A stretch of DNA of 64,000 nt from Octopus vulgaris (Eukaryota): contig OX597818.1 of NCBI GenBank assembly GCA_951406725.2, positions 57,970,001-58,034,000 on the forward strand, read 5' to 3'. The position numbers and the translations under genes are program-made. Shown here one piece after another: positions 1,555-62,221 of the stretch (the stretch's first letter is position 1; every line of letters begins with the position of its first letter). Under the pieces are notes generated by a model. It saw only the letters and a list, made by a program, of their open reading frames with translations. It did not search any database and had not been told where the DNA came from.

Positions 1555-1603
<49 letters not shown>

Positions 1604-1917
1604 AAAGTAAGATAGGGGTTATGGGTGTAACCCACTATGGGATATCAATTATACAATATACTGTTGGTAAAGTACCCACATTCTTAATACATAATGTTTT
1701 TAATTGTAATGCAATTAACTTATTTATTGTATTAAACGGGTGAAGGTAAAGAAATATTTTTACCGTAAATTTATAATACAAATAAGAAAATGGAGAAAGA
1801 AATTTGGTTTGTTCATCAACTTACACATAAATTTGTAAAATGAATAAATAATCGAACATTATAATATCTGTAAGTTGATGAACAAACCAAATACCAAATT
1901 TGTTTCTTATTTGAATG

Positions 1918-1948
<31 letters not shown>

Positions 1949-2521
1949 TCAATATAGGGTAGCAAAAAAAATTTTGTAGAATTCTTTTGCCACCAGCGGC
2001 CTAGTGGGAAAAAATTTAAATAGTCATAAACCATTTTTAAGTTCAACATCACAATCAAGGAACGGCCATAATAGGCCATTCACCCACTAGAAATAACAGC
2101 CAAAAGATTCAACCGCAAAATAACATCAATTCCGTATTACAGGGTAAATGTTTTTTAATTTTCTCCTGGTTTACGGAATTGATGTTATTTTGCGGTTGAA
2201 GCTTTTGGCTGTTATTTCTAGTGGGTGAATGGCCTATTATGGCCGTTCCTTGATTGTGATGTTGAACTTAAAAATGTTTTATGACTATTTAAATTTTTTC
2301 CCACTAGGCCGCTGGTGGCAAAAGAATTCTACAAAATTTTTTTGCCACCCTATATTGATTAATTATGAATTTTCTGGTTAATTCCGTAATGGAATCGGCG
2401 GCTTATATTTATTTGCTGCCGATAAATTTGGCGCGAGTGCGACGATTTGAACATTTTAGGTCAGATATTGACGAGGCTTGAACGGGAATGCCTCGTGAAA
2501 AATATCTGTTCCGACTTGGCT

Positions 2522-2628
2522 ATTTCTTACTGATGAATCTAAGGGCCTATGGTAGATTGGCTTGATTTAATTTAATCAGGTTAGTTTACCATTAAACAGT
2601 AGATGAAACGGTGCATCGTATAAGAAAT
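2522..2628 (+). ncRNA. Type I hammerhead ribozyme, copy 1
   Basis: Stem I auuucuua/uaagaaau; CUGAUGA; stem II AUCUA/UAGAU; GAAA; stem III CGG-UGCA-UCG; GUA triplet, predicted cut after 2620. Confidence 0.9.
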
Positions 2629-3011
2629 TACAGGGTAAATGTTTTTTAATTTTCTCCTGGTTTACGGAATTGATGTTATTTTGCGGTTGAAGCTTTTGGC
2701 TGTTATTTCTAGTGGGTGAATGGCCTATTATGGCCGTTCCTTGATTGTGATGTTGAACTTAAAATGGTTTATGACTATTTAAATTTTTTCCCACTAGGCC
2801 GCTGGTGGCAAAAGAATTCTACAAAATTTTTTTGCCACCCTATATTGATTAATTATGAATTTTCTGGTTAATTCCGTAATGGAATCGGCGGCTTATATTT
2901 ATTTGCTGCCGATAAATTTGGCGCGAGTGCGACGATTTGAAAATTTTAGGTCAGATTTTGACGAGGCTTGAACGGGAATGCCTCGTGAAAAATATCTGTT
3001 CCGACTTGGCT

Positions 3012-3118
3012 ATTTCTTACTGATGAATCTAAGGGCCTATGGTAGATTGGCTTGATTTAATTTAATCAGGTTAGTTTACCATTAAACAGTAGATGAAACG
3101 GTGCATCGTATAAGAAAT
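3012..3118 (+). ncRNA. Type I hammerhead ribozyme, copy 2
   Basis: Identical to copy 1, 490 nt downstream; predicted cut after 3110. Confidence 0.9.
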
Positions 3119-3236
3119 TACAGGGTAAATGTTTTTTAATTTTCTCCTGGTTTACGGAATTGATGTTATTTTGCGGTTGAAGCTTTTGGCTGTTATTTCT
3201 AGTGGGTGAATGGCCTATTATGGCCGTTCCTTGATT

Positions 3237-3288
<52 letters not shown>

Positions 3289-3305
3289 TTTATATATATA
3301 TATAT

Positions 3306-3379
3306 TTTTCCTAGTTTCAGCTCAGAGCTGCGGCCATGCTGTTGCACCGCCGTTTATATATATATATATACATGTATAT

Positions 3380-3426
<47 letters not shown>

Positions 3427-3475
3427 GGCGGTACATAAGCATGGCCGCAGCTCTGAGCTGAAACTAGGAAAAGAA
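3306..3475. repeat. Inverted pair of short SINE/LINE-type 3' tails around a (TA)n spacer
   Basis: 3306-3356 is the near reverse complement of 3420-3475; related to the family C tail ggcggtgctccagcatggccgcag. Confidence 0.75.
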
Positions 3476-3721
3476 AAAGAAATATATATATATACATATA
3501 TACATACGCTTAGAGTTGATTGAACTGATCATGATAGAAGCAACTGTAATCTAATAATGACGATTAGGTAACTCCTATGTTTTGGTTGTTCATGAGTTGA
3601 AATCATGTGTTTATTCCTCACTCTTTAATCAATATACTGTGCTGTAACAAATGGATACAAATATCGCTGTGGCTAAGCGAAGTCATGAGATATGTGTTCG
3701 GGTATATATATATATATATAT

Positions 3722-4247
3722 ATAACATAAGGGACTAAAGCCATCTGAATATGGCTAGGGACAGGGCAGAGTGGTGGGGGTGTTACTGTTGCATTTAGCC
3801 CCAGGCGAACATCGACGTCACCAGAAAGGCCGACACCGTCACGGTGTCCTTAACCTGCAAAGGGAGGTAATTCCCCGATGAAGCGGAAACCACACACGGA
3901 CCATGGTTTCAAGGTGTATTGCCTATCGTCGGCGTGTGGTAGGCTTCCGCTTCCTCGACGAATTCTCACTCTGCAGGATATTCATATATAGATTTTCAAG
4001 CAAAATACATTTGCTGATTTCGAAACTCTGTTCGAAAGCAATAATAATTCTCTAAAAGAGATATAGACAGTAACTGCTCGATAACATAAGGGACTAAAGC
4101 CATCTGAATATGGCTAGGGACAGGGCAGGGTGGTGGGGGTGTTACTGTTGCATTTAGCCCCAGGCGAACATCGACGTCACCAGAAAGGCCCGACACCGTC
4201 ACGGTGTCCTTAACCTGCAAAGGGAGGTAATTCCCCGATGACGCGGA
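3722..4247. repeat. Two near-identical ~165-bp direct copies (3722-3885, 4081-4247) of an unclassified interspersed repeat
   Basis: ataacataagggactaaagccatctgaatatggc...ggtaattccccgatga occurs twice. Confidence 0.8.
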
Positions 4248-4524
4248 AATATATATATATATATATGCGAACAACCTGGGTTTTAAGGAAGGAGCAATAA
4301 AATCCATTCACTTCGTTTGGAGAACAGTAGAATTTATAGGCCTCACATACCGACTGGATTGGTGGAAGGTGTCACTTGTTGCAAATACATCAAGTGATGC
4401 TATTCAGATACGGCTTGATGCATTTTGACCTTGTCGGTTTTGATACGTATCGAGTACACCCAGTGGGACATACGAGAAATGAGTTCTATTGCCTCCTTTA
4501 TATAAGAAAACAGTAAATATATAT

Positions 4525-4770
4525 ATACGACGGCCTTTTTTACGTATATGTGTGTGTATACGTTTGTGTACCTGTCTTTGTCCACCAACATCGCTTGACA
4601 GCAGATGCTGGTGTGTTTACGTCCCAGTAACTTAGCGATTCAGCAAAAGAGAAAGATAGAAGAAGTACTAGGCTTACTAAGAATAAGTCCTGGGCTCAAG
4701 TTGCGTGACTAATGGCGGTGCTACAGCATGGCCACAGTCAAATGACTGAAACAAGTAAAAGAGTAAAGGA
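4525..4770 (+). mobile_element. SINE family C, 3' half
   Basis: gatgctggtgtgtttacgtccc...gcatggccacagtcaaatgactgaaacaagtaaaagag as in 12963-13390. Confidence 0.8.
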
Positions 4771-6413
4771 GTATATCTACAAATGCTTCGCGGTACAGAC
4801 AATAGAGGTTGAAAAATGCAAGGCAGCTCACTCACTCTAGACGTAGCATGGATTTACGCTGTGTCAGCATTAAAGAATTTGCTTCAAATGATTGGCTTGT
4901 CTTAAAAAGACTTTGGCATCAACGAAATTGTTTATTTTGAAATAAATACTTCCATGAAAGGAATCGAATCTTTCTAAAGGAGAAAGAAAATTTCATTGTG
5001 AGAGAGAAAGATAGAAAAGGAGAGAGGATGAGAAAGAGAGAGAGATGGCGTACAATTTTTGTGATTCGCAGTTAAATTAATGTAAGTCAGATGCCAAACT
5101 GATTGAACGGGGCATTAAAAGAAATGGTACTCACAACTGGAAGTACTTGAATCCGTTGCATTATAAATCCGGTGATTTTTAAATTGTCCTGCTTTACGAG
5201 CAATAATGAAATGTGAATCTTTGACTTAACGGTCCTTGAAGTAGTAACAAAGATTTCCACGTATCTTTTATAAGGAGGTAAGTTATAATAGGTTATAGCA
5301 CCCACAAATCAACTTGATCTCGTTAGTTAAAACATTACAGTTACATACGACGATGCTGCTACAAGTTTCCTTACGAAATGGGATTAATCCAAGGCTTGGC
5401 GGAATGGTCTAATTGATACAAACATTTGCTGTAGGGGGATACAGCCGCGTACTCAGAACAAAAACGAAAGGCTGTCGTTTAGGCTGGCTGTCAGATACGT
5501 TTTCGATAGGAATGTCAGCGCCTGTACGTAGGGTAATTACCAGAATTTATATAATTATTCATTTGATGAAATGTATTGGATAAATGTCATATACACACAT
5601 TGATTTGATCCAAATTCACACTATGTATAAAGATGCAATGGCCTTTGAAATTATAACGAAAATCATTTTGTTTTTAAATACTCACAGCAAGTAATCGGTT
5701 CATGACGTACACTAACCCGTGAGAGGTGTTTAGCTGGAGCAAGTTGTATCGAATTCTAATTAAAACTTAGGGAATTATAAACAGCAACATTGTCAGTCAC
5801 GTTAATTAATCTCAGAGAGAAAAATCGTAACAATGCAGTCCATTTTACGTTGCATGTACTTACCCTTATTCTACGCCATCTAGTGTAGGAAATATGTTTA
5901 ACACAGGTCGTAGGTGATCTCATTAAAATTTGTTTGAAGCCTGCCGCATGTAACACTTGAAATTTCCAATTAATATGCTTTGTTCAATACACCTGCATAA
6001 ATATAATCAAGGATGATCATATTGTTTGGATTAATATATTAAGTTAATCACTGGTTACATCGTCGGCGGCGGCGCACGTACTTACGCATGATATAACTAT
6101 TATATGAAAAACTGAATTTTATAGTTGTTTGTTAATACTTTTCACCTTGGCATATGTAACTGTAGTCAAATGCTTCAATTACATATTTGGTTAATTATCT
6201 AACGTTAATTAATTGATTAAACGGAAAGAAACGAATAATTAAGGCATTTATTATTCACATAAAAAATTACTTTACATTATATGTTGTACATGGTAAACGC
6301 AACTGATTTTCTATAAGAACCTGCCAAATTATTCTCCACAATAACATACAATATGTTATTATTAAGAGCATATATTTCAAATTACTCACGAAATACATTA
6401 ATTTGTTCAATAC

Positions 6414-6646
6414 ATATTTCTTTACTACCCACAAGGGGCTAAAAACAGAGAGGACGAACAAGGACAGACAAACGGATTAAGTCGATTATATTGACCCCAG
6501 TGCGTAACTGGTACTTATTTAATCGACCCCGAAAGGATATAAGGCAAAGTCGACCTCGGCGGAATTTGAACTCAGAACGTAAAGACAGACGAAATACCGC
6601 TAAGCATATCGCCCGGCGTGCTAACGATTCTGCCACCTCACCGCCT
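6414..6646 (-). mobile_element. Full-length SINE family A
   Basis: tRNA-like head with B box gagttcaaattcc; 16-bp TSD ttaatttgttcaatac at 6398-6413 and 6647-6662. Confidence 0.9.
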
Positions 6647-6947
6647 TTAATTTGTTCAATACCATTGATCTCATCATCTTTAAGCTACTTCAAATTTAAA
6701 ACCGAAAATTCGCTCAGCAACGACCATTTACAAATTTTTTGTTGCCTCTTTCTTAACATGTTCCCTCCATCCACAGTTAACGTTAGAAATTAGGCACAGT
6801 ATCTCTTCTCTCCATCATCTTTCGGTTCCAATCAATACCTGTGGCTACCTATCATCCCTAGCTTTGTTTAAAAATCTGTATGTTATTTAAAACAAAGAAC
6901 AAAAGAACAAAACAAAACAGAAATGTAGTGTGTGTAAGCATCAATAT

Positions 6948-7452
6948 ATCCGCCGAGGTCGACTTTGCCTTTCATCGTTTCGGGGGTCGATTAAATAAGT
7001 ACTAGTTACGCACTAGGGTCGATATAATCGACTTAATCCGTTTGTCTGTCATTGTTTGTCCTCTCTGTGTTTGGCCCCTTGTGGGTGATAAAGAAATAGG
7101 TATTTCTTCTGCCGCTACGTTCTGAGTTCAAACTTCGCCGAGGTCGACTTTGCCTTTCATCCTTTCGGGGTCGATTAAATAAGTACCAGTTACACACTGG
7201 GGTCGATATAATCGACTTAATCCGTTTGTCTGTCCTAGTTTGTCCCTTCTGTGTTCAGCCCCTTGTGAGTAGTAAAGAGTTAGGTGTTTCGCTCGTCGCT
7301 GCGTTCTGAGTTCAAATTCCGCCAAGGTCGACTTTGCCTTTCATCATTTCGTGGAGGACAAATTAAATACCAGTGAAACACTGGGGGTCGATGTAATCCA
7401 CTTGCACCCTCCCCACCAAATGTGAGGTCGTGTGCCTCCAGTGGAAAGGATT
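6948..7452 (+). mobile_element. SINE family A tandem trimer, 5'-truncated
   Basis: Three consecutive gtcgactttgcctttcatc units; last unit has an alternative tail. Confidence 0.85.
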
Positions 7453-8573
7453 ATATGAACATATTTAATTTTCGGACAAATCGCCCTGAAAGCCAGGAAT
7501 CTTATATTGTACAACGTGCATCCTGATATTCTATAAAATGATGAGATGGAAATTCTTCGACTAACGTTACTCATTGCCCTCCTACTTGAGAGTACAACAG
7601 AGCTTATCTGTCAACAATTTATATTATACATAAAGTAGATTATATAAATGGAACATAAAGCCAAATTGAGAACCAATATTTCAAAAGCATTACGACATGA
7701 ATTTTCCTTCACCAACAGAATTTTATTCACTAACAGAGCAATAAAAAGAAATAACTTACTTAATTCAAAATTCCTGATAATGCATATTATAAAACTTGGA
7801 AATATATAGAAAAATTATGCACCGAATAAAATGAAGGAAAGAGTAATATCTGTAGAAAATAATCCAATAATACAAAATATATTTCCTTTCAAAAGGTTAT
7901 TTTACTTTATGACCTGGTAATGCCATGCTAATAGAACATTCGATTACCATAGAAGAGCTGCGAGCAAAGTAAGGTTTATTTGCTTGGAAAGATATTTGCG
8001 TTATGAATTATATAGGTCAAATCTGTAAGTCATTGAGAAATATGTTTCTTCGATGAGGTCGTAACAAAATCGCTCTGAAAAATTGCAGATAATAGAGAAG
8101 CACGTCGTTGGAGATAAAAGTGTATTCTACCACAAGTATGAGATAATAATTGCATAAAATATGAACTTATCATTATGACAAAAAAGAAATATGAAATTCC
8201 ATAAGTTTGTAAGTGAATCTATTTTATATATATATACATAAAATCATACAGATAAATCATAGAATGCGTCTAGCAAATAATTTCACAATTTCTTTCTCTT
8301 AATAATGAAACCAATGTATGTATATACAAATAGGTAACCGAAATAATCGCAGGTCTTCTCCAAAACACTTATCAGACGGTTTCTAAATGCATTATATCTT
8401 AAGAATAGATATGAGGGAATGAAAGGCAAGTGTAAGAAACATATAAATGAGCAAACAGGAAACGAAACAAAGATATTGTGTTCTGTTGGACGTGAATATA
8501 TTCTGATTTGCACAGTGTAGCATTATAAAACAATATTGTTTTGAATTTAATCTAATATCAGTTTACGTAGAAT

Positions 8574-8957
8574 GGGAAGCACTCCGTCGGTTACGACGAT
8601 GAGGGTTCCGGTTGATCCGAATCAACGGAACAGCCTGCTCGTGAAATTAACGTGTAAGTGGCTGAGCACTCCACAGACACGTGCACCCTTTACGTAGTTC
8701 TCGGGGATATTCAGCGTGACACAGAGAGTGACAAGGCCGGCCCCTTGAAATACAGGTACAACAGAAACAGGAAGTAAGAGTGAAAGAAAGTTGTGGTGAA
8801 AGAGTACAGCAGGGATCACCACCATCCCCTGCCGGAGCCTCGTGGAGCTTTTAGGTGTTTTCGCTCAATAAACACTCACAACGCCCGGTCTGGGAATCGA
8901 AACCGCGATCCTATGACCGCGAGTCCGCAGCCCTAACCACTGGGCCATTGCGCCTCC
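8574..8957 (-). mobile_element. SINE family B (tRNA-Arg-like head), tail type 1
   Basis: Head ggaggcgcaatggcccagtggttagg...ggtttcgattccc; 11-bp TSD ttacgtagaat at 8563-8573 and 8958-8968. Confidence 0.9.
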
Positions 8958-9448
8958 TTACGTAGAATACTCTTAGTGTTAATAAAGACACATTGTCTTG
9001 AAAGGCAACTCTTTGGAGTAAACAGTGACATGTTTCATCATAATGCATTCAGTTCAATGCTAATATGATGCTCGATAACCGCGGAAAATAATTCCAGAAA
9101 TAAGTTAAGGTGTTTGTATAGAGATTTTCCCCCTCCAATTAGAAAACTAGCGTCTTATACGTCTGTATGTACGTGTGTATGTGATGCAAGGAGAAAACAT
9201 ACAGAAGCTCGAAAAGTTCTACTTTTCACTACAATAATGCCTCGATTATCGCGTATGTTACCTTCCAAAAACCACTGCGATATGTGCAAGTCCGCGAAGT
9301 GGAAAGAGTACTCTATTGTATTTTCTTATTATCATTTTTATAATTTGTAAATGTTTAATTTATTATAAATTGAAAACAACATCACAGTGGAATCGACGTA
9401 AGTTTAAATAATTACCTACGATAGGCGAACCGCGATATGGCGAGGGAT

Positions 9449-9682
9449 AAGGCGACAGGCTGGCAGAAACGTTAGCACGCCGGGCGAAATGCGTAGCCGT
9501 ATTTCGTCTGTCGTTACGTTCTGAGTTCAAATTCCGCCGAGGTCGACTTAGCCTTTCATCCGTTCGGAGTCGATTAAATAAGCACCAATTAAGCACTGGG
9601 GTCGGTTTAATCGACTTAATCCGTTTGTCTGTCCTTGTTTGTCCCCTCTATGTTTAGCCCCTTGTGGGTAGTAAAGAAATAA
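9449..9682 (+). mobile_element. Full-length SINE family A
   Basis: 14-bp TSD atatggcgagggat at 9435-9448 and 9683-9696. Confidence 0.9.
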
Positions 9683-9769
9683 ATATGGCGAGGGATTACT
9701 GCATATCCAATAGGAAATCATTCACATCATGAAAATTATCTCCTTTAACCACATGGGAGACATAGATAT

Positions 9770-10084
9770 ATCACCATGATCACCGTGACCGACCAGACTA
9801 TCAGATGTTGCTACACATCGCTGGTCACAATGCGCTTTGGATTGTTTTTTTAGCCTTCAAATGACGCCACCCCACTGGCTAAGCGAGCAGGCCAACAGAA
9901 GAAAGATTGAGATAAAGTTGTGGCAAAAGAGTACAGCAGGGACTGTCACCACCCTCTGCCGGAGCCTCGGCAAGCTTTAAGTGTTTTCGCTCAATAAACA
10001 CTCACAACGCCCGGTCTGGGAATCGAAACCGCGATCCTACGACCGCGAGTCCGCTGCCCTAACCACTGGGCTATTGCGCTTCCA
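9770..10084 (-). mobile_element. SINE family B, tail type 2
   Basis: Same head as 8574-8957; different 3' half shared with 33241-33538. Confidence 0.85.
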
Positions 10085-10107
10085 CACATAGATATATATA
10101 TAAGATA

Positions 10108-10499
10108 CTAGCAGTATCGCCCGGCGTCGCTCGGTTTTGTAAGGGAAATAACTATATAAGCGTTTTTAGAGAGTTATAGCCAAAAAAATAGCAAAAAAAT
10201 GCATTAAAAATGGAAAAAAAATGATGGTAAATTTTTTTTTAAATCATTGACTCATCGTGGACATTTACTTCCCTTATATAATAGCGAAACAAATGCATTA
10301 AAACGGAAAAAAAATTATGGTAATTTTTTTTTATCGTAGACTCATCGTGGACGCGCGCTAATACCCAGAAGGGCTCGATATGAATCGCGACTATAAGATA
10401 CCCGGTTTTGGTTAAACTGCACCGTAAAATATGGGAGTAGTTAGGAATCTAAATCGTAGGAGACAGACAGACACACAACCTCTCTTTTATATATAAAGA
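10108..10499 (-). mobile_element. Non-autonomous Helitron
   Basis: Minus strand 5' TC..., subterminal GC-rich hairpin, CTAG 3' end, inserted between A and T; second copy at 17889-18297. Confidence 0.85.
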
Positions 10500-11099
10500 T
10501 ATTTTGTTTGTTATGTTAAAGACAATTTTTTGGAATGATGGCTTAATTACAATGCAATAGACATGCATTTCATAGAAACTAAATTATACTTCCGATTACG
10601 AATAATAAAACAATAATTGCAGTTTTATATTTTGATTAACTACGAGATGTATTCGGGAAATATATTGTGGTCTGTTTAGGTATATATCTTGCCTCTTATA
10701 ATTATGTGAGATATGGATTTCCAGCGTATACATTAATATAATAATGCACTAAAAAATGTGTTAATACGATAACGACGGCCATTAATCATATGAAATGAAA
10801 ATTCTAGATGCCTCTTTCCTGCATTCATTGGCAAAGCATATGTAAGGAAGCAATAAAATATGTATTTTAAGTTGAAATAACCATAATTCATGTCTTCTGC
10901 TGCATTAGTTTTACTATACCGAAGCAATAAAATTATAACATTTATTCCTTTCGAATCAATCTTGTAAAAATGATACGTTAATAAAGCGAATGATAATAAC
11001 ACGGTTTCTATGGTAAATTCCTCGAAATATTCACACGACTCGCGGTTTTTGAGAAACAGAAGTACCAAAGGTAGTCATGAGTTTATGAAACGCGCTTCA

Positions 11100-11307
11100 C
11101 ACACACACATACATACATACATACATAAATACATACATACACACACACACATACATACATACATACATACATACATACATAAATACATACATACATGCAT
11201 GCACACATACATACATACATACATACATACATACATACATACATACATACATACATACATACATACATACATACATACATACACACATACATACATACAT
11301 ACATACA
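11100..11307. repeat. (ACAT)n microsatellite
   Basis: Direct reading. Confidence 0.95.
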
Positions 11308-11428
11308 TGAGACCCACTTCGGTCCTGACTGACCATGGGATTGCTCCTAGAAAGTTACCCTCCCAGGCACAAATCCGGGCGAGGTTGTTTATGGAAGACC
11401 AGCAATCGCCCATGCATAACGGCCTCTC
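11308..11428 (-). mobile_element. SINE family D, 3' fragment
   Basis: Reverse complement similar to 24025-24137. Confidence 0.75.
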
Positions 11429-11962
11429 ACACATACATACATAGAGATACATACATATATAATGCATGCATACATACTACATACATATGTGTGTATGTAT
11501 GTAAAGGCAGTATAAACATCATCAGCATTTGCATTCAGATCGTAAACAACCAGAAAAATGTGAATGCTTACATCTGACGCACTCATAACTCTGGCATTTT
11601 GTCGTGATTTGATAATAATTAAGTTACTTTCATAATCACTAATGATGTACTTAATGTTGATTGACATGACAGATTAAGGAACACTACAAGTGGTGAACAT
11701 GACAACATGATGTCCTGTAGTACTCACAATAAAACTTAGAGACAAAATTTAGAGGTTTAGTTTGTAGAGAGTCAGAAAATGTAACAAGTTAAAGAAAGAC
11801 ATCTTAATAGTATGTGTGATATTTTCCTTAAATGTGTTAAATATGGGTGTAACGTTAAGTGGACATGTTTTCTAACCAATTCATTATGATAAAATTAAAT
11901 GTTTTGAGGTGGCCAAAGCGATAATGGACAATACTAGGTAAAATATAGATTTTAAATCCTGA

Positions 11963-12376
11963 CTAGTTATTTTGAGCCGTGCTTCGCTCGGGTTTTGCTT
12001 GTTGTGTTGTTTTGTGCAAATCTAAAAATAGGACAAAAATGTACTCTTTTTAAAAGTTGAAAGATTTTAACCCCCTTTCCAAAATCCCCCAAATTTTTAC
12101 ACCCACAATTAAAGAAAACCTCTAGCCCCTGTAGCAACATGTAAAGCCACCATTATTCAAACAGCGCAACCTGTCTGTCGCATAAAACTCAATTTTTCCT
12201 ATATTCCTCACCATGGCAACCAAACGGAAGCCCCGAGCGACTTGCAACCCCCTCTCACACCATTTCCCACCCCATTTTACTCCCCAGTGTAAATTTTGTC
12301 GCCAATCCGACCCCATCCCAAAATGAGACAAATAACCAAGAAATCAAACAACTTTTTCGCATTTTAGCATTATAGA
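11963..12376 (-). mobile_element. Non-autonomous Helitron, second family
   Basis: Minus strand A|TCTATAATG...ccgagcgaagcacgg hairpin...AACTAG|T. Confidence 0.7.
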
Positions 12377-12962
12377 TATTGAATTAAAAATAGAAGAATA
12401 GCACAATTATATATGCTTTGTATACAAGTTTCAGGTGGAAGTCCACTTACCGAAAATTTCCCATCGCACCAAGAACACTAGGAAAGATACGATAAGTATA
12501 ATAACAACTTCGTGCAGTCCTTAATACATTTGATAGCATTGTCAGTTTTAATAAAACTACTCTGGGTAAAATAAAACGAGGCGGAAGTAACACTCTATCC
12601 AGTGAGGAATTTATAATTACCAATAGTTACTAAGGAGCGAACAGTACACTTGTGGAACCCTAAATACGGTAAGGAGGATCAAGCATAGAGAATAATTAAT
12701 TATAGCATTTCTCTGTCTGACTGTCTCCCTTTGTCTCTCAAGTACCCATGCAAAGTACTCCTTCAGAAATATGTTTTGCGGAGACGTAAACTTCCAGTAC
12801 ATTAAAAGACCAGATATGAATAATGATTTATTGAATAATGATTTATTAAACCAGTTACGATTAAACGTAAAACGTGTAGCTATGTTGTCTTCTGCAATAT
12901 TTATTGTATATAAATATAAAGTATATTGTATATAAATATGAAGTATATTGTATATAAAATAT

Positions 12963-13390
12963 AGGCGCAGGAGTGGCTGTGTGGTAAGTAGCTTGATAAC
13001 CAACCACATGGTTCCAGGTTCAGTCCCACTGCGTGGCATCTTGGGCAAGTGTCTTCTGCTATAGCCCCGGGCCGACCAATGCCTTGTGAGTGGATTTGGT
13101 AGGCGGAAACTGAAAGAAGCCTGTCGTATATATGTATATATATATATGTGTGTGTGTGTGTATTTGTGTGTCTGTGTTTGTCCCGCTAGCATTGCTTGAC
13201 AACCGATGCTGGTGTGTTTACGTCCCCGTCACTTAGCGGTTTGTCAAGATAGACAGATAGAATAAGTACTGGGCTTACAAAGAATAAGTCCCGGGGTCGA
13301 TTTGCTCGACTAAAGGCGGTGCTCCAGCATGGCCGCAGTCAAATGACTGAAACAAGTAAAGGAGTAAAAGAGTAAAAGAGTAAAGAGTAA
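12963..13390 (+). mobile_element. Full-length SINE family C with internal (TA)n(TG)n and (GAGTAAAA)n tail
   Basis: tRNA-like head tggctgtgtggtaag...ggttcagtcc, CORE-like ttgggcaagtgtctt, 3' stem-loop cagtc-aaat-gactg. Confidence 0.9.
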
Positions 13391-14028
13391 TTAAATGGGG
13401 TCTGAGGAATGCATTGTCGCTACAATTAAAGCTTCTTCTTTGAATTTCTCAATGGTTTGTGTTTTTGTTGCAAAAATACAAGGTCGAGTTGCTTAATTGT
13501 TAGATAATCCCGTGTAATAACGAGAAAATTGTTATAATGAAACCCATGTTGATATAATCGCTGTAAGATTCGCATAAAAACATACGTGAGAAGTGAGAAC
13601 ATGCTAATTATACAGCCAATAGGCAAGGGAAATTTTATTTTCTATTACATCATTGCTCAGGAAATATAATGAGGATATAATTAATTGCAGTTACACAAAC
13701 CTCAGGCAATTTGAAGTTCTAAGGAAGTAGGAGAGTTTATATAATCATCTCTATTCCAGTTGAGATGTCAGGTTCATATTTAATAATTGGGTCTTAGAAA
13801 TTGTATATTATTGCGTAATATTTCTACCCATTTGAAAATCTCGGTTAAGTATATGCATAACGCCATATATGGTTGCATTTCTCTATATTATATTCTGAAA
13901 CTGGGCGTATGTGTATGAATATATAGTATTTAAAATTTATACGTGTACAACTCCTTATGCTGAAGTGAATGCGTTAATGTGTATGTGTTTATATGAGTAT
14001 GTATCCATAGATACAGCTATACATCTTT

Positions 14029-14071
<43 letters not shown>

Positions 14072-14087
14072 TACACATACATACATA

Positions 14088-15395
14088 CAGGGTGTGTAAG
14101 ATATTTGAGGACATTTTTTTATATTTATAAAACACAGATATGTAATAAAAGATAATAACGTTATTGTTATATTTCGGAATGGTCATATTGCCAGTTTAGC
14201 CAATAAAAACACACGCACTATATATTTGGTGTTATTTTGCTTCAGTGTTATTTATTTTTTATATTAATCTTAATCTTATTTCGGCTGACGGTTATTAAGG
14301 AGAGACACAGATAAGAAAGAAGAAAACAAAGGACCACTGATGCGGTCACAGGAGTGTGACGAAAGAACTGTGGCCGAAATAAGATTAAGATTAATGTAAA
14401 AAATAAATAACACTGAAGCAAAATAACACCAAATATATAGTGCGTGTGTTTTTATTGGCTAAACTGGCAATATGACCATTCCGAAATATAACAATATCTG
14501 TTTCAACAGACGACTTCACATAAAAAAATCTTGCACAACAAATATTTAAAGATAATAACGTTATTTATCAAAAAATGCTACGAGGATAAAAAATAAACAT
14601 TCTTTTCTATAATGTTATGCAATAAAGTCACCTTCAGTTTCAACAACTGCTTCTAAATTATCTATATACTCGAATCAAGTGATTTCGGTTCATTTTGTAC
14701 ATTAATCAGAATGTTTGCGGCTTCCAAAGAATCTTTGGTGTTACGGGAGTGTTCATTGATCTCCCTCTCAAAAGTGCTCCACATGTAATAATCCAATGGA
14801 TTGAGATCTGGGGAAATAGGATGCCAAATGTTAGGGGTTGTGTGATCATAAAAATTTTCAGCTATCCATTCCTGTGTTACTAGAGCCATATGTGATAGTG
14901 TGGAGCCTTATTGAACCACATATGATTTTCCATTGCGTGCACTGTCTATCCAAGGATTTATAAGTATTTCCAGAATCTCATTGTAGGCGTCAGAGTTAAC
15001 TCTAAGATCCTTTGAAAAGACGTAAAGAGGCATCACATGTCCTTCATTGCTGACAAAACCTAAAACAACGACGGTTTCAGGAAATTTTGTATGCATAACA
15101 CTTGGAACTTCAGAAGGTTCTGTAGATAACCACCTGTCATTTCTTCTGTTAAGTTTTTGATCTTGGTCGAAATTTCTCTCGTTTGAGAGAAACCAAATCA
15201 AACGTACTGCTGAGTTGTTCAGTTCGTTTAAGAGCCTTTTTCGATCTGATGTAGTGATTTTCTTTTGCTTTTTCTGACAAATTGACCTTTCCTCATCACA
15301 TAAGACTTATCTCTGATGTGTACGTGGGGAACATTTCTGATTGTTCCCCCTGACGCATGGACATCTTTCGCAATTGACTTTATGGACTCTCTAGG
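14088..15395 (-). mobile_element. Decayed Tc1/mariner-superfamily transposon (maT/DD37D-like), interrupted by a PLE-type insert and truncated by a SINE
   Basis: ORF pieces 14908-15201 and 14662-14889 (NRRNDRW, VMHTKFP, WHPISPDLNPLDY); terminus TA-cagggtg at 14086-14094. Confidence 0.8.
14163..14550. mobile_element. Fold-back pLTR-only insert of Penelope family P2
   Basis: Arms 14163-14285 and 14374-14497 are inverted; near-identical to the ends of 21873-23245; flanking duplication aaagataataacgttatt at 14148-14165 and 14548-14565. Confidence 0.85.
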
Positions 15396-15667: not shown

Positions 15668-16010
15668 AATGAAAGAATGGAGTCGAACGAAGATTTTAAC
15701 AAAATTCCTTTACTCTCACCACATTTTTTCGAAGACTGTATACTCTTAATTCCGAAGGAATAAAGGGTGCATTCGGAATTAAGAGTATGCAGTCTTCGAA
15801 ACATGTGTTGAGAGTAAAGGAATTTTGTTAAAATCTTCGTTCGACTCCATTCTTTCATTTATTCATATACAAAAACCACACAAATTACCACACAAGAACA
15901 CGAGGTTTCTACCCTTGGCATGTAGCTTCAACCGTGTTTTCTGACGTGAATTTGCAACCCAGGTATCGATTAACCGAATTATTAATACTAGGATAATTAA
16001 TTCACCTACT

Positions 16011-16969: not shown

Positions 16970-17232
16970 AATAGGATAAAATCTTCATAAGAAATTATCA
17001 AGTAGTTAGCGTGAAAAACCTCATAAGAGAAAAAAACCTGTAATTTTTTCCACTTGAATATATTCATTTATATTGTATAGAGGGCATTTTTACACATAAA
17101 TGCCACACGCTAGGAGGGACTCTTAAAGTCAAAACTACCAAAACTACAAACATTTATTTTGGTAGTTTTGACTTTAAGAGTCTCTCCTAGCGTGCGGCAT
17201 TTATGTGTAATAATGCCTTCTATATAATATAT
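16970..17232. mobile_element. Fold-back insert beside (TA)n (probable PLE terminus)
   Basis: Inverted arms ~17069-17145 / 17157-17232; end aggataaaat mirrors attttatcct near 59395. Confidence 0.6.
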
Positions 17233-17888
17233 ATATATATATCGGACAATATACCAACGGCTGAAAAATACGTAAACACATAACGAGAGGCAATCACCGG
17301 ACAAAATAACAAAAGAAGTCTGACTCCTCCTCAGTTGTCAACTGTTTATTAATCCCCATTTCGAGCTTTGAAGTACAAAATCAGAAAACGTGGTAAGACA
17401 GTAGCATCTAGGATTAAAAAAAAAGATATAAGATTTGTGGAGAGTTAGGGCTTTCAAACGAACGAGCAGCAACAGAGTGGCCGTACAGAGGAAAATTTGA
17501 CGAAGTCGAATATTAAGTGCAATGTAATGTGTTACGCCTAGGAGAAATTTTGAAATGATATAGATTAAACAGAAGAGAAGAAAATAGTAGAAGAGAAACA
17601 TGGCGGGAGGCGAGAAAAATGACGTCCAGTGAGGTGAAAGTCGCGTCAAAAGAAGACCGAGGTGACAGAAATGACCTGTGTCACGTGTGAGCAAACAGGC
17701 AGATGGGGAGGAAGACAAGAGAGAAGATGGGGGAAAGAAACAGAGGAAGTGAAGAGAAGGGAGAAGGATGTAAATATAGTAGGGAGTGGAAGAATGTCAG
17801 GGGAGAGCAAAGAACGAGAGGGACAAACGGAAAATAAAGAGGATTATAGAGGGATAAAGAGAAAAAAGAAAGATTGAAGTCGTAGATA

Positions 17889-21828: not shown

Positions 21829-21878
<50 letters not shown>

Positions 21879-22514
21879 ATATTTCGGAATGGTCATATTG
21901 CCAGTTTAGCCAATAAAAACACACGCACTATATATTTGGTGTTATTTTGCTTAAGTGATATTTATTTTTTACATTAATCTTAATCTTATTTCGGCCAAAG
22001 TTCTTTCGTCACACTCCTGTGACCGCATCAGTGGTCCTTTGTTTTCTTCTCACTTACTTGTGTCTCTCCTTACTAACCGTCAGCCATTTTGTATTTCTAT
22101 TGTATGTCTTCATTTGCGCATGCTTATATCTCTATGTGCGTCTATGTTTATTTAGTGTGTGTGTGGGGGGGATGCCTGTAATATTTGTATCTTCTGGTTA
22201 TATACATTCTTGTAATTTGTATTTTGTTTTTGTTGTTGTTGCTTTTGTTCTAATTTTGTTCATGTGTTTACATCCACCCATTATTATCATTACATATGCT
22301 TGTATGTATGTATAACAACAATATTAGTAATAATAATAATAAATCTAATCGAAAAAAAAAAAAAAGAATATACATATACATATATATATATACATACATA
22401 TACATATACATATACATATATATGCATATATACACACATATATACACATATAGATATTCATTTCTATTTCTTTAATTACCTGTGTATTTATTATGTTTGC
22501 AGGATCCACTATTG

Positions 22515-22910
22515 TCATATGTTGTGGTGTGCGCTATTGCTCCATTCTAGTTTTCTATTCAGGCTAGGTTTATTTTCTATTATATGTGTAGCTTCTGTAA
22601 TTTGTCTAATTGTTGCATCTGTTCTATGTGTGGACAATATCTTAATCTCTATGTTATTGATTGATCCCCCGTGTTCTTGTTCGGCGTGTTGGTACAGAAT
22701 CGATGAGCTTTTACCTTCTTTGAGTTGTCTCCAATGTTCATTCACCCGCTCACCAATGCTTCTTGCAGTTTCCCCTACGTATGTTACTGTCTTGTTACTG
22801 CATCGTCCCTCTATACATCTTATACTATAGACCACATTTCTGGCTTTACAGTTCGTTTGTGGGCTAAATCTACATACAGTGCAATAGTTATCCGTACAGA
22901 GAGTTCTACT
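22515..22910 (-). pseudogene. C-terminal GIY-YIG endonuclease domain of a PLE ORF (truncated)
   Basis: CTVC...NCKARNVVYSIRC...TYVGETARSIGERVNEH...LYQHAEQEH...EATHIIENKPSLN; frame open to the stop codon. Confidence 0.9.
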
Positions 22911-23026
22911 AAATAAACATAGACGCACATAGAGATATAAGCATGCGCAAATGAAGACATACAATAGAAATACAAAATGGCTGACGGTTAGTAAGGAGAG
23001 ACACAAGTAAGTGAGAAGAAAACAAA

Positions 23027-23071
23027 GGACCACTGATGCGGTCACAGGAGTGTGACGAAAGAACTTTGTCC
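23027..23071 (+). ncRNA. Hammerhead-like motif with variant core (also at 21993-22037 minus and 14331-14375 plus)
   Basis: ggacca-CUGAUGCG-GUCACA-ggag-UGUGAC-GAAA-gaacuu-uguc. Confidence 0.55.
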
Positions 23072-23246
23072 GAAATAAGATTAAGATTAATGTAAAAAAT
23101 AAATATCACTGAAGCAAAATAACACCAAATATATAGTGCGTGTGTTTTTATTGGCTAAACTGGCAATATGACCATTCCGAAATATAACAATATCTGTTTC
23201 AACACACGACTTCACATAAAAAATCTTGCACAACAAATATTTAAAC

Positions 23247-23312
<66 letters not shown>

Positions 23313-23316
<4 letters not shown>

Positions 23317-23515
23317 TTTATTTAAAGCAGCAGAAAATTCAACAAAACCTGTTACTCTGAGTTTCCCGTTGCCGTTTGTCCAACGAACGGCAACGGGAAA
23401 CTCAGAGTAACAGGTTTTGTTGAATTTTCTGCTGCTTAAAATAAAGCATATTACTCTACCAGTGGTATTTGAGTACTCTTTTTTCCACCTTGTTTCACAT
23501 TTATATGTTTACTCC

Positions 23516-52140: not shown

Positions 52141-52558
52141 AGGCGGCGAGCTGGCAGAAACGTTAGCGCGCCGGGCGAAATGCTTAGCGGTATGTCGTCT
52201 GCCGTTACGTTCTGAGTTCAAATTCCGCCGAGGTCAACTTTGCCTTTCATCCTTTCGGGGTCGATTAAATAAATACCAGTTACGCACTGGGGTCGATATA
52301 ATGGACTTAATCCGTTTGTCTGTCCTTGTTTGTCCTCTCTGTGTTTAGCCTCTTGTGGGTAGTAAAGAAATAGGCATTTCGTCTGCCATTACGTTGTGAG
52401 TTCAAATTCCGCCGAGGTCGATTTGCCTTTCATCCTTTCGGGATCGATAAATTAAGTACCATTTGCGCACTAGGGTCGATGTAATCGAGTTTATCCTTTT
52501 GTCTATCCTTGCTTGTCCCCTCTATGTTTAGCCCCTTGTGGGCAGTAAAGAAACAGGT
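52141..52558 (+). mobile_element. SINE family A dimer
   Basis: Full monomer followed by a headless unit restarting at ggcatttcgtctg. Confidence 0.88.
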
Positions 52559-53649: not shown

Positions 53650-54251
53650 AAGGCGGTGAGCTGGCAGAATCGTTAGCATGCCAGGCAAAATGCTTTGTGG
53701 TATTTGGTCTGCCGCTACGTTCTGAGTTCGAATTCCGCCGAGGTCGACTTTGCCTTTCATCCTTTCGGGGTCGATAAATTAACTACCAGTTACGCACTGG
53801 GGTCGATATAATCGATTTAATCCCTTTGTCCGTCCTTCTTTGTCCTCTCTGTATTTGGCCCCTTGTGGGCAATATACAAATAGGTATTTCGTCTGCCGTT
53901 ACGTTCTGAGTTCAAATTCCGCCGAGGTCGACGTTGCCTTTCATCCTTTCGGGGTCGGTTAAACAAGTACCAGTTACGCACTGGGATCGATATAATCGAT
54001 TTAATCCCTTTGTCCGTCCTTCTTTGTCCTCTCTGTGTTTAGCCCCTTGTGGGCAATAAAGAAATAGGTATTTCGTCTGTCTTCACGTTCCGAGTTCAAA
54101 TTTCGCCGAAGTCGATTTTGCTTTTCATCCTTTCGGGGTCGATAAATTAAGTACCAGTTACGCACTGTTGTCGATGTAATCGACTTAGTCCGTTTGTCTG
54201 TCCTTGTTTTTCCTCTCTGTGTTTAGCTCCTTGTGGGTAGTAAAGAAATAG
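53650..54251 (+). mobile_element. SINE family A trimer within a single TSD
   Basis: TSD tgtgttgcaatc at 53637-53648 and 54254-54265. Confidence 0.9.
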
Positions 54252-58871: not shown

Positions 58872-59090
58872 CGATAGGAGAATGAATTATCCTATGTTTA
58901 TCGTCAACATGGAAAATTCAATGAACCGATACCAGGGTAGCAAATTCGCGTCAGAAACACGGTTGAAGCGACGTGTCCAATGGTAGAAACTCCGGGTTCA
59001 CGTGCAGAAATTTGTGTGTTATATATGAATAAATAAATGAATGGAGTTCAACGAGTTGAACGAAGATGTTCAACTCCATTCATTTATTTA

Positions 59091-59098
<8 letters not shown>
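58870..59098 (-). mobile_element. Family P1 remnant with terminal hairpin
   Basis: gggtagcaaattcgcgtcagaaacacggttgaagc is the reverse complement of the P1 tail; hairpin 59021-59098. Confidence 0.7.
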
Positions 59099-59129
<31 letters not shown>

Positions 59130-59139
<10 letters not shown>

Positions 59140-59409
59140 CATAAATGAGGGCAAAGGAAAATTTCTAATACGAAATATGCCGAAAAATTGGACATATTGT
59201 CCATTAACCATATAGTTTTTTCACTATATGGTTAATGGACAATATGTTCAATTTTTCGGCATATTTGGCATTAGAAAATTTTTTCCCTTCCCTTCATTTA
59301 TGAATTATATATAAATTTAACCGTTAAAGGTATTTTTTAATATGCTGGCCATTGATAAAATTGTTTTCGAGAATATATTTTTTTTCGAAAAGAATTTTAT
59401 CCTCACATT

Positions 59410-62102: not shown

Positions 62103-62221
62103 TGTTTACAGCACCTAGGTTTCCCAAGCGGGCACCTATCCAAGTGCCGAGTAGGCTGGACGCTGCTTAATTTCGTTGATCGGACGAGAACCGGTGCTTT
62201 CAAAGTGACATACGGTGCTCG
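62103..62221 (-). pseudogene. Diverged 5S rRNA copy
   Basis: Minus strand ttgaaagcaccggttctcgtccgatcaacgaaattaagcagcgtc...cacttggataggtgcccgcttgggaa...ggtgctgta follows the metazoan 5S sequence with many substitutions. Confidence 0.8.

Follow-up and report, generated by a model that had tools for sequence, protein, structure and literature searches.

The 64-kb window (the whole stretch of DNA that was analysed) contains a 1.3-kb element between two (TA)n tracts, in which an inverted arm (1945-2136) is followed by a direct tandem (2136-3241) that begins just past the position equivalent to the predicted cut of its own hammerhead ribozymes. Our preferred reading, to which we give an even chance, is that this is a non-autonomous hammerhead tandem moved into (TA)n by a PLE RT/endonuclease, and that it arose from two target-primed cDNAs, at least the long one made on a ribozyme-cut template, which were joined via a hairpin. 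The reading starts from features that can be observed directly, namely the layout, the ribozyme fold, the high copy number, the (TA)n outer ends and the register of the junction.

The features of the locus are listed in Table 1. The direct tandem has a period of 490 bp and comprises 2.26 units that are 99% alike; its full units of 491 and 490 bp differ at 4 sites (4 in 1106 nt). The original prediction placed the start of the array at 2136, 6 nt after the GUA cut, and directly downstream of an inverted copy of 2172-2363, and all of this was borne out. Identity to the following unit begins exactly at 2136, which is equivalent to 2627, the six bases 2621-2626 lie between the predicted cut and the equivalent of 2136, and the stretch 1945-2136 reads as 2172-2363 in reverse complement (97.9% identity to unit 2 over 193 nt), with 1 nt common to both arms at the 2136 junction. 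In sense orientation, the 3' end of the inverted arm meets (TA)n at cut+233, where 2-3 nt belong to both, and partial unit 3 ends 12 nt past a predicted hairpin, with 2 nt shared with (TA)n. At both outer ends, a stable hairpin is found 12-14 nt upstream and TTGATT 3-4 nt upstream. A target-site duplication is indistinguishable within (TA)n. The longest ATG ORF of the element encodes 50 aa (5 ORFs listed), and the window as a whole is AT-rich animal-type DNA with many (TA)n tracts and dispersed repeats.

Table 1. Features of the (TA)n-flanked element, in window coordinates
Feature	Position	Strand	Remark
Left (TA)n target microsatellite	1918..1945	no strand	
Inverted arm, copy of 2172-2363	1945..2136	-	sense 5' end at cut+43
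Non-mirrored 37-nt centre of head-to-head palindrome	2136..2172	+	imperfect hairpin
Tandem unit 1, 491 bp	2136..2626	+	begins at cut+7
Type I hammerhead 1	2522..2628	+	GUA, predicted cut after 2620
Tandem unit 2, 490 bp	2627..3116	+	
Type I hammerhead 2, identical to hammerhead 1	3012..3118	+	predicted cut after 3110
Partial unit 3	3117..3241	+	sense 3' end at cut+131
Right (TA)n target microsatellite	3240..3305	no strand	

The inverted arm carries 3 private differences in 191 nt relative to the direct units, and it has the unit 2 allele at 8 of the 8 family-variable sites checked. All arms therefore share one haplotype, which is compatible with a circle or with a single source array. It is very improbable that the palindrome is secondary, whether through a second insertion from this family, through DNA rearrangement at a later time or as a chimera of the assembly or library. 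The higher density of private differences in the inverted arm (3 in 191 nt versus 4 in 1106 nt) would fit such an origin, as would the finding that the exact junction is not listed in the four aligned runs described below. However, the identical alleles at the eight variable sites argue against it, as do the outer ends, which both join (TA)n cleanly. The window also contains several similar structures, of which one has a target duplication, and a chimera at the read level would yield identical arms.

The hammerhead prediction is based on the elements that define type I: CUGANGA, GAAA, NUH and a three-way junction with stem I open were all present in the sequence. In hammerhead 1, the core consists of CUGAUGA (2530-2536) and GAAA (2605-2608), stem I has 8 bp (2522-2529/2621-2628), stem II has 5 bp and is extended by 19 bp, and stem III (2608-2619) has 4 bp and a palindromic loop, so that pairing between two copies is possible. 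A short palindromic stem III is described as a hallmark of animal hammerheads that act as dimers (PMC4209133). Pair 10.1-11.1 is A-U, and the usual G-C is absent. With a strict descriptor, three type I hammerheads were found on both strands of the 64 kb, the two in the array and one at 995 (-), and the score of the array hammerhead was reached in none of 200 block shuffles. The Rfam model Hammerhead_3 gave 12.4 bits (E 9.2), below its gathering score of 48.5; since the 68-nt stem II is mostly unaligned, this low score informs on membership of the Rfam family only and does not count against a hammerhead fold. An Rfam search over the window at E up to 0.1 listed no hammerhead and matched miRNA models only, and these matches, which fall on hairpins and microsatellites, were taken as chance. 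A very relaxed hammerhead descriptor was dropped, as it gave 5 matches versus 2-6 in shuffles. In DNA runs of the family, no core position varies at 1% or more, unphased variants hit both partners of the pairs 2525/2625 and 2541/2600, four further variants keep the stem pairing, and those at 2553 and 2604 break a pair. From the modelled fold, we infer that the array hammerhead would be capable of self-cleavage.

The 490-bp unit was found in 20 of the 24 public runs listed, chiefly from organisms A, B and C, and exact-pattern scans of metagenome contigs and viral contigs gave no copy of it. Four runs (X1, X2, X5 and X13), all consisting of contigs, were aligned to one unit (2411-2900), with X20 (share 0.09) left outside this set, and 1565-14609 contigs with many variants aligned in each of three large runs. 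The family is dispersed and high-copy in three organisms, and it is young and very abundant. Apart from the seam between units, five joints were listed: 2454 to 2621 (X1), 2572 to 2621 (X2), 2441 to 2632 (X13), and 2649 to 2741 and 2727 to 2815 (X2). Two of the five restart at 2621, which is cut+1, one in X1 (organism A) and one in X2 (organism B); they leave from different upstream points, with 1 and 3 shared bases, and both are direct joins and not inversions. A third joint, the one from X13, restarts at +12. Under a uniform null, which ignores structure and base bias, p is 1.1e-4 for at least two of the five joints falling on the cut and 1.2e-4 for at least three of the five in +1 to +12; the chance that two of five share one position anywhere, without any ribozyme, is 3%. 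In contig joints of this kind letters may intervene between the two sides. None of the 24 loose ends listed, out of 221, lies at +1 to +12. Strand-changing joints were not listed for the four runs either, the window's own junction included, and contigs cannot prove their absence. The joints at cut+1 fit an RT that reaches the cut 5' end of its template and then switches to another RNA, or alternatively the copying of a cut RNA that had been ligated to a fragment.

A fall in depth after 2750 in the four runs was rejected as a common 3' end, because the allele at 2761-2782 breaks the alignments, the allele of the window differing here from the common one. In X13, a run guessed as RNA, contigs, which reveal neither RNA ends nor circles, cover all bins of the unit. 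One X13 contig of RNA type enters (AT)n at 2752, the equivalent of the right outer end, and this may be the orthologous locus. Another X13 contig, on 2548-2690 (depth 10.6), has 13 differences in 144 nt, many of them A>G on the plus strand, and its A>G sites 2594, 2606, 2608 and 2637 are nearly invariant in the DNA runs. This single contig looks like A-to-I editing of a sense transcript, two core bases included.

The original prediction further held that the template had a ribozyme-generated 5' end, so that the array start would be a footprint of past cleavage in vivo, and this claim fared less uniformly than the layout. It is strengthened by the family joints, with two of five at cut+1 and one at +12, data that played no part in raising the idea. 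For the focal start alone, a position within 0-10 nt past the cut has a probability of about 2% by chance (11/490), in a range that was chosen post hoc. Against a cut template, the long cDNA passed two intact predicted ribozymes, and other 5' ends in the window mostly lie elsewhere. Nine further sense 5' ends could be placed against a predicted cut in the window. Six are upstream of it, at about -87, -158, -909 and -260 and two near -40 to -50, and were thus copied from RNA that was uncut at that site; two lie within 12 nt of the predicted cut, both with non-canonical cores (p 0.03-0.05, assuming 3-4% per end), and the remaining one is the inverted arm of the focal element at +43. A cut template is thus one outcome among others and not the rule. 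For the focal copy itself, we consider a ribozyme-cut 5' end of the template likely.

Alternatively, the template could have been uncut or circular and the focal start an ordinary 5' truncation, with a chance stop of the RT, a hairpin-guided join and a merely coincidental proximity to the cut. PLE insertions are heavily 5'-truncated and often have an inverted 5'-truncated copy, also in clades that lack hammerheads (PMC8557442), and the six upstream ends, the two crossed ribozymes and the single haplotype in all arms, as would be expected from a circle, are in line with such an origin. So is the work on an anole PLE, for which cleavage was dispensable in vitro and uncut RNA was the main substrate, and for which no RNA-seq reads started or ended at the cut (PMC11167929). 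However, chance stops do not explain why, among five joints, two fall exactly on cut+1 and one on +12 (p about 1e-4 under the uniform null), a covalently closed circle would lack an end at that site, and a hairpin-guided join could have occurred elsewhere, equally good hairpins being available at half of all positions. We regard this explanation as somewhat unlikely. Among other systems, only 1 of 9 Xenopus retrozyme dimers was cleaved in vitro, which speaks against a cut template (10.64898/2026.07.22.740005), and 5' junctions of R2 track the ribozyme cut site, which is a precedent for one (PMC3774820). A literature search, with most subscription papers outside its reach, returned no mapping of genomic 5' ends of PLEs or retrozymes to the hammerhead cut.

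The junction itself stands in the register of an imperfect hairpin that falls in the 50 nt following the cut, with 8 of 13 bases paired. This level of match is reached by 2 of the 92 registers from this start and by 0.9% of all registers, and since half of all unit positions have some equally good register, the hairpin accounts for the offset of the junction and not for its place. Positions +2 to +6 are unpairable in the junction register and +7 is pairable, and a cDNA that ended at +1, paired in this register and was trimmed to +7 would give the observed 37-nt centre. Alternatively, the missing bases may reflect stalling of the RT within stem I, with the 5' cleavage product still paired there; this also fits the 9 nt that are missing at the 5' end at 4249 (see below). 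As DNA, the hairpin has little stability (-2.2 kcal/mol, z 0.2), and the letters at the focal junction fit both the annealing of two cDNAs and a fold-back.

According to the preferred two-cDNA reading, both target strands would be nicked, each priming a cDNA on the element RNA, one at cut+131, copying 2.26 units, and the other at cut+233. At least the long cDNA would have run off a template with a ribozyme-made 5' end, the two cDNA 3' ends would pair via the imperfect hairpin, and after trimming of the flap back to +7, extension would produce the palindrome with its 37-nt centre (+7 to +43). Crossing of the two internal ribozymes could be explained by a partly cut multimer, or by the RT leaving a cut monomer at its 5' end and continuing on the 3' end of an RNA. 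For the anole PLE, the purified protein nicked both strands of the target and extended them from two internal sites in the RNA (PMC11167929).

In the original prediction the cDNA, made on the cut template, folded back. Spelled out, a single cDNA would fold back at the hairpin and prime its own inverted arm, the far end of which would then be joined to the target. The register of the junction and the centre of only 37 nt agree with this scheme, the inverted arm is wholly contained in the direct array and has the same haplotype, and self-priming has been proposed for PLE palindromes, in that case on an antisense template (PMC3846280). It is the folding back that fits less well: the hairpin is weak as DNA, the outer ends look independently primed, the far end of the arm resembling a separate primed start, the joints listed for the four runs include none with a change of strand, where contigs cannot prove absence, and an element with the same layout at 21871-23247 cannot have arisen in this way. 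The scheme as a whole thus appears unlikely to us, and if a ribozyme-cut template is granted, a true fold-back becomes a possible but still minor outcome. Arm differences were dropped as a discriminator between fold-back and dual priming, as they look private and all arms have one haplotype.

The element at 21871-23247 is a 5'-truncated PLE in (TA)n with a head-to-head arrangement of a minus-strand long arm and a plus-strand inverted arm, both with a hammerhead-like motif of non-canonical core. Its long arm has 750 nt that are missing from the short arm and that include a remnant of GIY-YIG, the end of the ORF (22518-22919; Pfam E 3e-4, 21.5 bits, just below the Pfam threshold of 22.6), and the short arm extends about 54 nt past the end of the long arm. 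Each arm has sequence that the other lacks, so neither was copied from the other. This layout, together with the weak DNA hairpin and the fact that, in the focal element, each outer end is a sense 3' end at (TA)n, is why we favour two cDNAs, although the argument from 21871-23247 is by analogy and the focal copy itself is non-decisive. In L1 twin priming, two target-primed cDNAs likewise give a 5' inversion joined by microhomology, but there the direct part is not repeated in the inverted part. In the focal element it is, because the template was a tandem or two RNAs were used.

Several other structures in the window have hammerhead or head-to-head features. A short head-to-head copy of the same PLE family as 21871-23247 is present at 14162-14550, with an 18-nt target duplication (14148-14165 and 14548-14565); it reuses both end sites of the longer element with the arm roles swapped, and the start of its inverted arm falls 2-5 nt beyond a guessed cut, with a non-canonical core. 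Between (TA)n tracts at 3722-4249 (-) lies a retrozyme-like tandem of 360 bp and 1.47 units, unrelated to the focal unit, whose hammerhead has one core change and a predicted cut at 3899. Its 5' end is found 9 nt past the equivalent predicted cut, at the end of the stem I arm, and joins the target without an inverted arm. A third hammerhead family occurs at 958-1255, 15668-16004 and 58909-59100, with the predicted cut at 995 (-). At two of these loci the upstream part stops at nearly one position, and next to it comes a small head-to-head palindrome made of the family's 3' end; the junction of 15668-15860 falls within stem II, upstream of the predicted cut. Short palindromes adjoin (TA)n at 1766-1926, 17058-17242, 23316-23446 and 59123-59319, and these four are probably older head-to-head insertions of other families. 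Directly to the right of the array (3306-3472), facing 50-bp inverted arms surround a (TA)n core, and the arm resembles dispersed-repeat ends at 4711-4760 and 13312-13360. A 184-bp dispersed repeat, which we take to be reminiscent of an octopus SINE, forms tandems at 6949-7403, 52195-52557 and 53699-54251 besides many single copies, and the strict hammerhead scan of this repeat found none. Finally, 62103-62220 (-) is 5S rRNA-like (42.7 bits versus a gathering score of 38).

When compared with known systems, the focal element with its inverted arm is a non-LTR retrozyme with a standard PLE architecture. It has a complete predicted type I hammerhead in two consecutive units, no coding capacity and dispersed multiple copies, as expected of a non-LTR retrozyme, and a head-to-head inverted 5'-truncated arm, a partial tandem and a microsatellite target, as expected when a PLE is the mobiliser. 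An autonomous PLE would have an ORF for RT and GIY-YIG between pLTRs, and the focal element is without ORF. A sequence link to an autonomous partner was not found, and the GIY-YIG remnant at 22518-22919 belongs to an unrelated family without similarity to the focal unit. Retrozymes have been described as type I hammerhead repeats in tandem that use circular RNA as template, with PLEs as their likely mobiliser (PMC7229834). Like the animal non-LTR retrozymes, the focal family consists of non-coding low-GC tandems with a type I hammerhead per full unit, a dimerisable palindromic stem III and dispersed copies, with PLEs as the proposed mobiliser (PMC7229834; 10.64898/2026.07.22.740005). It differs from these in its unit of 490 bp, versus the 150-450 bp quoted, in its very long stem II, and in the PLE-type head-to-head arm of the focal copy.

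The endonuclease-positive PLEs share with the focal element a partial tandem with a 5' inverted 5'-truncated copy, a microsatellite target, a hammerhead and two internal 3' ends (PMC8557442; PMC3846280; PMC4209133; PMC11167929), but they differ from it in that the focal element has no ORF and that its 3' ends are about 102 nt apart, versus a tail of 30-40 nt. Inverted 5'-truncated copies at the 5' end and a bias for microsatellites are reported for PLEs, with an unclear role of the hammerhead (PMC8557442), and head-to-head palindromes were described together with the self-priming proposal (PMC3846280). The inverted 5'-truncated arm is therefore a published general trait of PLEs, and nothing special to the focal copy. 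R2, which carries an HDV-like ribozyme, is more distant: both the ribozyme and the RT class are different, and it is site-specific in rDNA and without inverted arm (PMC3774820).

The published model for retrozymes assumes circular RNA and a rolling circle (PMC7229834), whereas the 5' end of the focal element and the family joints point to a linear cut template. Tentatively, and with more doubt than confidence, we suggest that retrozyme and PLE arrays are built from linear ribozyme-cut RNAs and not from circles, the RT jumping from the cut 5' end to an RNA 3' end. A jump onto an intact cut monomer, the ends of which are held together by stem I, would add a perfect tandem unit, and a jump onto a broken RNA would leave partial joints that restart at cut+1. 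Without a jump, the array would end a few bases past the cut and be joined to a second target-primed cDNA. Both cut and circular RNAs of retrozymes are known, and we found no demonstration in the texts consulted of which form is reverse-transcribed.

The arms of 21871-23247, each with unique sequence, provide a simple argument for deriving the head-to-head inversions of PLEs from two target-primed cDNAs. An abundant young family with junctions at the cut makes the question of the template form testable with one genome assembly, and if arrays are indeed built from linear cut RNAs, genomic 5' ends would record, at population scale, how hammerheads have been cleaved in the germ line.
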